Position numbers and translations under genes: made by a program. A DNA stretch of 64,000 nt from Shigella phage sb2. Shown here piece after piece: positions 15,361 to 16,779 of the stretch (position 1 is its first letter; every line of letters begins with the position of its first letter). The notes beneath the pieces are model-generated. The model had not been told where the DNA came from. It searched no databases and saw only the letters and a list, made by a program, of their open reading frames with translations. The stretch lies in the sequence record PQ666540, one strand, 5' to 3'.

Positions 15361-16779
15361 TTATGGATAGGTATAGATTATACCAGTTTCTAAAGCAGTT
15401 TTATGAATGATGTATCCATTACGCGATTCTTGAACATCGACTTCTGGATAGTCTTTTATCATCTTCTGAAGAGTGTAGCGGTGCAAGTAATACTTACTAT
15501 CTGGGTCGTCAGTTTTCCAATCTTTACCTTCTTCGGTCATTTTTTGGATTTCATCCATAACCCACCAACCGCACCAGATATAAGCTGAAGTACGATGTGG
15601 AAGAGGATGAACATAAGGCAATTCACCTTCTGGTTCCGGAGCAACTTTATCAGTTACCTGAACTTGACCAGTCGCTTTAACTGTTTTACTATCATAGTCG
15701 GTTTCTGTAACGACAGCAGTAACTTCAATAGTTTTACTTCCAACAGATGAGGTGTCAACGGTGTATACGTTAGTTGACCCTTCTACAGGAGAAGAATCTT
15801 TCTTCCATGAATAAGTAATTTGTGCTGCTCCAGGCGCGCCAGTAACATTAGCAGTAAATGTAGCCGAAGCATCTTGCTGAACGTTAATAGAAGGAGGAGT
15901 CAATGCAATCTGTGGATTCATTGTCTTCTTATTAACCGTCAATGTTACTTCATTGGAAGTAACTTCCTTTTCATTGTAATTTTCAGCCGTTACTTGGGCT
16001 ACACATTTAATTCTTTTTACTCCACTTGTAGTTGGAGTATAGTTAAATGTAGAGTTAGTTTCTCCATCGACCAGAGAATCATCTACATACCATTTATATG
16101 TAGCAGTTGCGCCATCGGGTTGAGAATCTAAGGCAGCGGTAAATTCAATTGGAGTTCCAATTACTCCAACTGAAGGACTATTAGGAGTTACAGCCAAGGT
16201 AGTCGTCTGCGTCTTTTTATTAACTGTCAATGATACTTCATTAGAAGTAACGCTCAGTGCATCATAATCAGCCGCAGTTACTTGAGCTATGCACTTGATT
16301 TTTTTAACTCCGCTTGTAGTAGGAGTGTAATTGAATGTAGCAGAAGTTGCTTCGCTTACAGGAGAACCGTCAACGTGCCATTGATATGTGGCAGTTGCGC
16401 CTGATGGCTGTGAAGCTAAGGCAGCAGTAAATTCAATTGGAGTTCCGATTACTCCAGCTGGAGGACTAGCAGGAGTTACTGCTAAGGTAGTTGTTTGCGT
16501 CTTCTTATTAACTGTGATAGTTGTAGTAGTTTCTGCTGTTTCAGGATCAGTATCTGGAATTGTATTTGTTGCAACTACTTTAATAGTCTTTTGACCGGCA
16601 GGTCCTTTTAATACATAACCAAAAGTTGCTTCAGCTCCATCTTGTGGAACATTATCTACACTCCAAGCATAGGTAATAGTTCCACCTTCAGTTTCACCAC
16701 TGGGTGTAGCAGTAAACTGCTGAGTCTGATCAATAACTCCAGTAGGTGTTTTAGGAGTTATATCAACTGTAAAAGCCAT
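15361..16779 (-). CDS. hoc: highly immunogenic outer capsid protein Hoc, 4 Ig-like domains + capsid-binding domain
   Basis: 472-aa ORF; repeated TVNKKT-terminated Ig-like modules; C-terminal PEPEGELPYVHPLPH...WCGWW capsid-binding region as recalled for T4 Hoc (376 aa). Confidence 0.9.
   Translation of the reverse strand: MAFTVDITPKTPTGVIDQTQQFTATPSGETEGGTITYAWSVDNVPQDGAEATFGYVLKGPAGQKTIKVVATNTIPDTDPETAETTTTITVNKKTQTTTLAVTPASPPAGVIGTPIEFTAALASQPSGATATYQWHVDGSPVSEATSATFNYTPTTSGVKKIKCIAQVTAADYDALSVTSNEVSLTVNKKTQTTTLAVTPNSPSVGVIGTPIEFTAALDSQPDGATATYKWYVDDSLVDGETNSTFNYTPTTSGVKRIKCVAQVTAENYNEKEVTSNEVTLTVNKKTMNPQIALTPPSINVQQDASATFTANVTGAPGAAQITYSWKKDSSPVEGSTNVYTVDTSSVGSKTIEVTAVVTETDYDSKTVKATGQVQVTDKVAPEPEGELPYVHPLPHRTSAYIWCGWWVMDEIQKMTEEGKDWKTDDPDSKYYLHRYTLQKMIKDYPEVDVQESRNGYIIHKTALETGIIYTYP
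15931..16506. repeat. tandem direct duplication (2 x 288 bp) inside hoc encoding duplicated Ig-like domain
   Basis: Copies 15931-16218 and 16219-16506 align with offset 288 nt (e.g. attaaccgtcaatgttacttcattggaagtaac vs attaactgtcaatgatacttcattagaagtaac). Confidence 0.85.

Follow-up and report, generated by a model that had tools for sequence, protein, structure and literature searches.

The hoc gene of Shigella phage sb2 (PQ666540), located on the minus strand at 15361..16779 of the window analysed here (a stretch of 64,000 nt), encodes a capsid decoration protein with four Ig-like modules, one more than the Hoc of phage T4. We consider it very probable that this gene is the four-Ig hoc of Tequatrovirus, whose extra domain derives from an old, in-frame duplication of the 96 codons of domain 2 (D2) and forms part of a recombining a-b(-c) array. 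In T4-type phages generally, a single Hoc monomer sits in the middle of each gp23* hexamer, with up to 155 copies per head, and the protein is dispensable for growth.

Identity and genomic setting of sb2 hoc

According to the ORF list, sb2 hoc codes for 472 aa followed by a stop codon, that is, a protein of 50.7 kDa. With a pI of 4.70 and a net charge of -19 at pH 7 (4.74 and -14 for T4 Hoc), it has the acidic character of a Hoc fibre (pI about 4-5). The protein matches T4 Hoc (PDB 5vf3_Z, 376 aa) with an E-value of 9e-220, and the matching phage records annotate its counterpart as hoc. As in T4 and PP01, its neighbours are inh (16789-17469) and 24.3 (15050-15259), within the order rnlB-24.2-24.3-hoc-inh-uvsW. 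Indeed, inh lies upstream of hoc with uvsW past it, and 24.3, 24.2 and rnlB are found downstream, which is the order of T4; the ORFs agree with the annotated records of T4, PP01, wV7 and Sf22. The first 25 kb of the window share ~97% identity with both Shigella phage pSs-1 and Escherichia phage ECp13. By sequence, the gene is the hoc of a Tequatrovirus (T4-like coliphage).

Regarding expression signals, a Shine-Dalgarno-like AAGGA read from the sequence (16786..16790, minus strand) is positioned 6 nt 5' of the hoc ATG and overlaps the stop codon of inh. At the other end of the gene, 11 nt past the stop codon, a terminator scan retrieved a GC-rich hairpin (AAGGGGCTTCGGCCCCTT) with a T-rich tail (15333..15350, minus strand) resembling an intrinsic terminator, and the record of phage NBG2 carries an annotated terminator at the position matching this hairpin 3' of sb2 hoc. 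A sigma-70 promoter scan near hoc gave 4 sites for 4.1 expected, no excess over chance, a null result that was expected because hoc is a late gene in T4.

Some of the related database entries call for a comment. GenBank MG010123.1 ('Staphylococcus phage SAJK-IND', 32 kb) matches positions 1-25000 of the window at 97.2%, and its host label looks wrong. One cluster of 472-aa Hoc proteins (P0017) bears the NCBI name 'endonuclease [Shigella sonnei]', and phages PTK and AV113 are filed as Mosigvirus with a hoc of the Tequatrovirus type. In the T2 record AP018813.1 (301-1417), hoc is split into three short annotated CDS, the first frame ending after 62 aa; this broken gene may be either a genuine pseudogene in that stock or the product of sequencing frameshifts.

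The 288-nt repeat and the architecture of Hoc

Two independent repeat finders, one of them TRF, retrieved in sb2 hoc an ungapped direct tandem repeat with a period of 288 nt (15923-16210 / 16211-16498), with 2.1 copies, 77-78% matches, 0% indels and a TRF score of 736. In a self-offset scan of the gene, offset 288 alone stands out, with an identity of 0.778 versus at most 0.43 elsewhere, and the self-offset identity did not exceed 0.40 in codon-shuffled controls (n=300); the repeat is far beyond chance. Delimited at 15931-16218 and 16219-16506, the two copies keep the reading frame and share 77.4% of their nucleotides and 76.0% of their amino acids, somewhat less than the 80-85% claimed in the original prediction. 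They are arranged head to tail, 288 nt corresponding to 96 codons, and their edges fall at domain boundaries: the units start at KKT/QTTTL linkers (the slash marking the edge) and each of them coincides with one beta block of the AlphaFold2 (AF2) model. Moreover, a 24-nt linker motif is present in three copies in the gene, 288 nt apart.

The alignment with T4 Hoc falls into two pieces, residues 1-137 of sb2 corresponding to T4 1-137 and residues 205-472 to T4 109-376, and sb2 Hoc therefore contains exactly one extra 96-aa unit. The T4 length of 376 aa, as given in the original prediction, agrees with PDB 5vf3_Z and with the T4 record OZ209057 (hoc of 1131 bp), and T4 lacks the four-module form of 472 aa. 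The proposal of four Ig-like modules instead of three, the additional one arising from a 288-bp tandem duplication, was correct, and the module duplicated in frame is domain 2.

Along the protein, Ig-like domain 1 (D1; 16498..16779, minus strand, as for all the segments that follow) covers aa 1-94, with an all-beta block at 4-91 and a pLDDT of about 90. It is followed by the tandem repeat with its KKT/QTTTL edges, in which copy 1 of Ig-like domain 2 (u1; 16210..16497, aa 95-190) is of the 'a' type and copy 2 (u2; 15922..16209, aa 191-286) of the 'b' type except for a short patch, SLVDGET, that resembles c. [quoted passage not shown] Within sb2 Hoc, u1 and u2 share 76% of their amino acids versus 31-38% for all other pairs of modules.

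The N-terminal region is recognized as a linear string of Ig-like domains by Pfam, by the AF2 model and by Foldseek. PKD- and Ig-type Pfam matches cover three modules, with Ig_2, BiPBP_C and PKD_3 in 121-186 (u1), PKD at 195-268 (u2) and I-set and Ig_3 at 289-374 (D3). The AF2 model, built from a 25-sequence alignment (mean pLDDT 82.8), comprises four all-beta blocks at about 1-91, 99-187, 194-283 and 290-376, with a pLDDT of about 90. In the PDB, the best Foldseek matches are the four-Ig strings of Dscam1 (Ig1-4), Sidekick-2 (Ig1-4) and ICAM-5 (D1-D4), with E about 1e-14. RB49 Hoc (3SHS) is absent from the Foldseek top 50, which is dominated by longer four-Ig strings, and the assignment to the Hoc family therefore rests on sequence.

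Regarding the C-terminal region, it is helix-containing and poorly modelled by AF2, with a pLDDT below 60, and its assignment was thus based on sequence identity with the T4 domain of solved structure. The 16 residues that Fokine et al. 2023 (PMC10385173) list as gp23* contacts or as conserved are all kept at a +96 offset and are invariant in the 25-sequence alignment. The domain retains Y389, H391, H395, R396, Y400, W402, W405, W406, D409, Q450 and Y456 as well as the ESRNG loop (E451-S452-R453-N454-G455). As judged from these residues, the capsid anchor of sb2 Hoc is intact.

Compared with known Hoc proteins, sb2 Hoc shares its gene position with T4 Hoc (PDB 5vf3, 8t1x; Fokine et al. 2023, PMC10385173), and D1, D3 and the C-domain are collinear, but the T4 protein is of 40.4 kDa and has a single, b/a-mosaic D2, whereas sb2 has one more D2-type module. 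The architecture D1-u1-u2-D3-C is that of the 472-aa Hoc of ECp13, PP01, wV7, pSs-1, KMB23, vB_EcoM_G28 and others, which share with sb2 the unit boundaries and the a-then-b order and are 83-94% identical to it in amino acids. The sb2 allele is itself new to the collections, its nearest relatives being ECp13 (94.3% in nucleotides) and P0009 (94% in amino acids), and its u2 differs from that of the other 472-aa Hocs by the c-like patch and by TLT in place of SLT at 279-281, which no other sampled unit shows. The Hoc-like protein of Klebsiella phage PMBT63 (468 aa) has, like sb2 Hoc, four Ig-like domains and a capsid-binding domain. The two proteins are about 47% identical, and the near-identical pair of PMBT63 is made of a D3-like module (KKTMSGVSVTLTP...); as a different module was duplicated, the PMBT63 duplication is independent of the one in sb2. 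The PMBT63 protein has been described as having 'an additional Ig-like domain' compared with T4, and mucin retention was shown by experiment (PMC13435897).

Copy number, order and age of the D2-type units

The four-Ig form is widespread among the relatives of sb2. With sb2 hoc as query, megablast matched 678 phage records and, in an evenly spread listing of 51 full-length matches, hoc was recovered in one piece of about 1419 bp in 21 (including PP01, wV7 and pSs-1) and as 1131 bp in two overlapping pieces in 30 (including T4, RB5 and RB68). About 40% of the Tequatrovirus records sampled thus encode the 472-aa Hoc, a figure drawn from this even sample of 51 rows and from public phage collections skewed to E. 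coli and Shigella isolates. A count obtained with the 576-nt two-unit query ('279 records' at at least 80% coverage) was discarded as unclean, because two pieces both matching a single D2 get joined.

In a database of 5.8 billion proteins, the close relatives form discrete classes of 376, 472 and 568-570 aa, in which the D2-like unit is present once, twice and three times, respectively, and the 472-aa class amounts to about 30 clusters at 90% identity. The 568-570-aa Hoc, known from UGKSEcP1, UGKSEcP2, ESh34 and several independent metagenomic contigs of about 166 kb, shares the 96-aa D2-like cassette with sb2 and has three units (a, b, c). The cassette is also shared by the 283-aa Hoc of AV113 and of PNJ-9, the latter a published variant (PMC11853027), but these proteins have one D2 and have lost D3 whereas sb2 has two units. 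Five-Ig Hocs of 568-570 aa, with their three D2-like units, occur in independent genomes, in ESh34 (ON528744.1) and among P0001-P0008. The units of ESh34/P0001 match u1 and u2 of KMB23 plus u2 of pSs-1, as if this array came from an unequal crossover between two two-unit phages.

The order of the units is conserved. Four variable protein segments were typed in 134 proteins, a scheme that simplifies a continuum of mosaics: u1 is of the a type in 36/37 two-unit proteins, the b-then-a order was found in none of these 37 and the b-c order in one, while three-unit proteins have the order a, b, c. The commonest one-unit form is an a/b hybrid ('aabz', 37/88), as would be expected for the product of an unequal-crossover deletion in an a-b array. 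This typing replaced a two-type scheme of 20 diagnostic sites telling a-type from b-type units, which is too simple given the many mosaics and the existence of three or more types of unit. With these 20 sites, the single D2 of T4 is of the b type for about the initial 205 nt and has an a-type 3' end; LYE-01, Sf22 and u1 of pSs-1 are a-type with b-like ends; and u2 of KMB23 is patchy. Conserved order, discrete 96-aa steps and deletion-like hybrids are thus the features of this array. The mosaic, ordered units indicate homologous recombination, and the conservation of their order speaks for an array that originated once or a few times.

Recombination is also apparent at the level of the whole gene. 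pSs-1, the best match to the whole region, is 97.4% identical over 25 kb, yet 87% in hoc, and hoc is a local hot spot of mosaicism and divergence relative to its flanks. D1 and the C-domain of sb2 hoc are nearest to the three-Ig phage LYE-01, and u1 and u2 to ECp13. In P0037 (567 aa) and P0041 (472 aa), D1, u1 and the C-domain are of the Tequatrovirus type and the middle Ig units are highly divergent (e.g., '...VEIGTATTFTANVSNQP...'); these middle units appear to come from another Hoc lineage, in which case modules would be exchanged across lineages besides being duplicated. The original prediction had proposed a recombination-prone site, which holds for the population, with its one-, two- and three-unit classes and mosaic units, but frequent slippage in one stock is unlikely. 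Indeed, the longest exact match between u1 and u2 of sb2 is only 20 nt, and within-stock length heterogeneity is therefore not expected.

Following its origin or origins, the array would have spread and undergone deletions, expansions and conversions through homologous recombination, and a large share of the genus would inherit or exchange the old D2 duplication. The number (1, 2 or 3) and composition of the D2 cassettes would be reshuffled by homologous or unequal recombination between co-infecting T-even phages, with crossovers probably located in the conserved linkers (TVNKKT/QTTTL) and in conserved beta-strand stretches. It is also conceivable, though in our opinion unlikely, that two-unit genes arose repeatedly, by one-step unequal crossovers at the linkers between co-infecting three-Ig phages with diverged D2 alleles, so that the copies differed at ~77% identity from the outset. 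Such events would be in line with the a-, b- or c-type D2 of one-unit phages, with the free recombination of T-even phages and the mosaicism of hoc relative to its flanks, and with three-unit genes that resemble combined units, such as the KMB23 and pSs-1 units joined in ESh34/P0001. However, they should yield b-a as often as a-b, whereas b-a is seen in 0/37 two-unit clusters, and the three-unit genes hold the a, b, c order, to which selection on order may contribute. The preferred reading, an old duplication maintained in an ordered array, is further supported by the age of the copies.

D2-like units were excised from 14 hoc genes for identity, tree and dS comparisons. In nucleotides, sb2 u1 shares 94.8% identity with the first unit of ECp13 and 89.9% with that of PP01, versus 77.1% with its own u2; the closest comparisons for sb2 u2 are the second unit of ECp13 (93.1%) and the D2 of the one-unit phage RB68 (89.9%). 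In the neighbour-joining tree, sb2 u1 clusters with the u1 of other two-unit phages, and sb2 u2 groups with second units from other phages as well as with the D2 of the one-unit phages T4 and RB68. One clade contains all first units with the D2 of LYE-01 and Sf22, and the other all second and third units with the D2 of T4, RB68 and AV122. The bootstrap value of this split between a-type and b/c-type units is 0.958, in an unrooted tree that accommodates a gain from one unit as well as a loss from a three-unit ancestor. Between u1 and u2 of sb2, dS reaches 0.81, versus 0.18-0.60 for same-position copies from different phages and 0.08-0.46 between phages for D1, D3 and the C-domain. It follows from the clade split and from dS that the two-unit state is older than the divergence of the compared phages. 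Moreover, dN/dS between u1 and u2 is about 0.19 and both D2 copies are therefore under purifying selection. A decaying extra copy was also considered and was ruled out by the intact frame, this dN/dS ratio and the many independent genomes.

From the similarity of the copies, the original prediction had suggested a recent event. A recent duplication private to the sb2 lineage, by slippage or unequal crossover, with near-identical and still unstable copies, is highly improbable. The exact 288-nt period without indels would suit it, but the copies are 77% identical, with a dS of 0.81 and positional clades (bootstrap 0.96), whereas the two members of such a duplication should be mutually closest and low in dS. 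Each copy is instead 93-95% identical to its ECp13 counterpart and about 90% to that of PP01, the architecture is found in about 40% of the sampled records, and exact matches between the copies extend to 20 nt at most. Finally, an assembly or sequencing artefact expanding the repeat is scarcely credible: tandem repeats are prone to mis-assembly and the five-Ig record of ESh34 is flagged UNVERIFIED, but a 23% difference between copies is not confusable by assemblers, the frame is intact, the 472-aa form is found in dozens of independent complete genomes and in ~166-kb metagenomic contigs, and the 568-aa form in UGKSEcP1, UGKSEcP2 and several independent contigs.

Predicted consequences for the Hoc fibre and for T4-like phages

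By homology with T4, sb2 Hoc would form a D1-D2a-D2b-D3 fibre seated through its C-domain, one monomer per gp23* hexamer. T4 heads bear 155 Hoc fibres of about 180 Å each (PMC10385173), and the extra Ig module would lengthen such a fibre by roughly 4-5 nm and add about 5 negative charges to it. It would also supply another surface of the D2 type; in phage PNJ-9, such a surface is reported to bind fucosylated MUC2, with S183-L184-T185 of Hoc domain 2 as the site (PMC11853027). At the predicted equivalent of this site, u1 of sb2 Hoc has SLT and u2 has TLT, u2 reading NEVTLTVN (15943-15951, region of aa 277-279) versus NEVSLTVN in all other sampled units; this is probably a minor, allele-specific detail. 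The equivalent of T4 D246 is D342. The additional module could plausibly change the reach of the fibre, the avidity with which it binds bacterial surfaces or the glycans of mucin, its pH-dependent clustering or its antigenicity, with no new function implied.

Hoc homologues are known to contain 1-10 Ig-like domains (PMC10385173, section 3.6), the number of which 'varies widely' in T4-like phages (PMC13435897). In the literature searched, which did not extend to Sathaliyawala et al. 2010, we found no explicit account of the 472-aa Tequatrovirus Hoc or of the D2 duplication, and no description of an ordered a-b-c D2 array. The 472-aa architecture has already been deposited, annotated as Hoc, in many genomes. 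The four-Ig Hoc of sb2 is thus real but already known in kind, a common and long-standing allele class that involves no new mechanism, and the added value of the present analysis, a modest one, is a population picture of an ordered and recombining cassette array.

Hoc is the standard display and vaccine scaffold of T4 as well as a model protein of phage-mucus adherence. For those who engineer or compare T4-like phages, it is relevant that about 40% of the genus, as sampled, has a four-Ig fibre and a few members a five-Ig one, and that the duplicated module is of the domain type for which MUC2 binding has been reported in a relative, PNJ-9. More tentatively, the D2 modules may constitute an ordered a-b-c array that is continually reshuffled by recombination between co-infecting phages, and selection may maintain this because it diversifies the most immunogenic protein of the capsid in fibre length, in glycan specificity or in antigenicity, a possibility to which we give less than even weight. 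If true, hoc would be a population-level locus of surface variation and not the site of a neutral length polymorphism.
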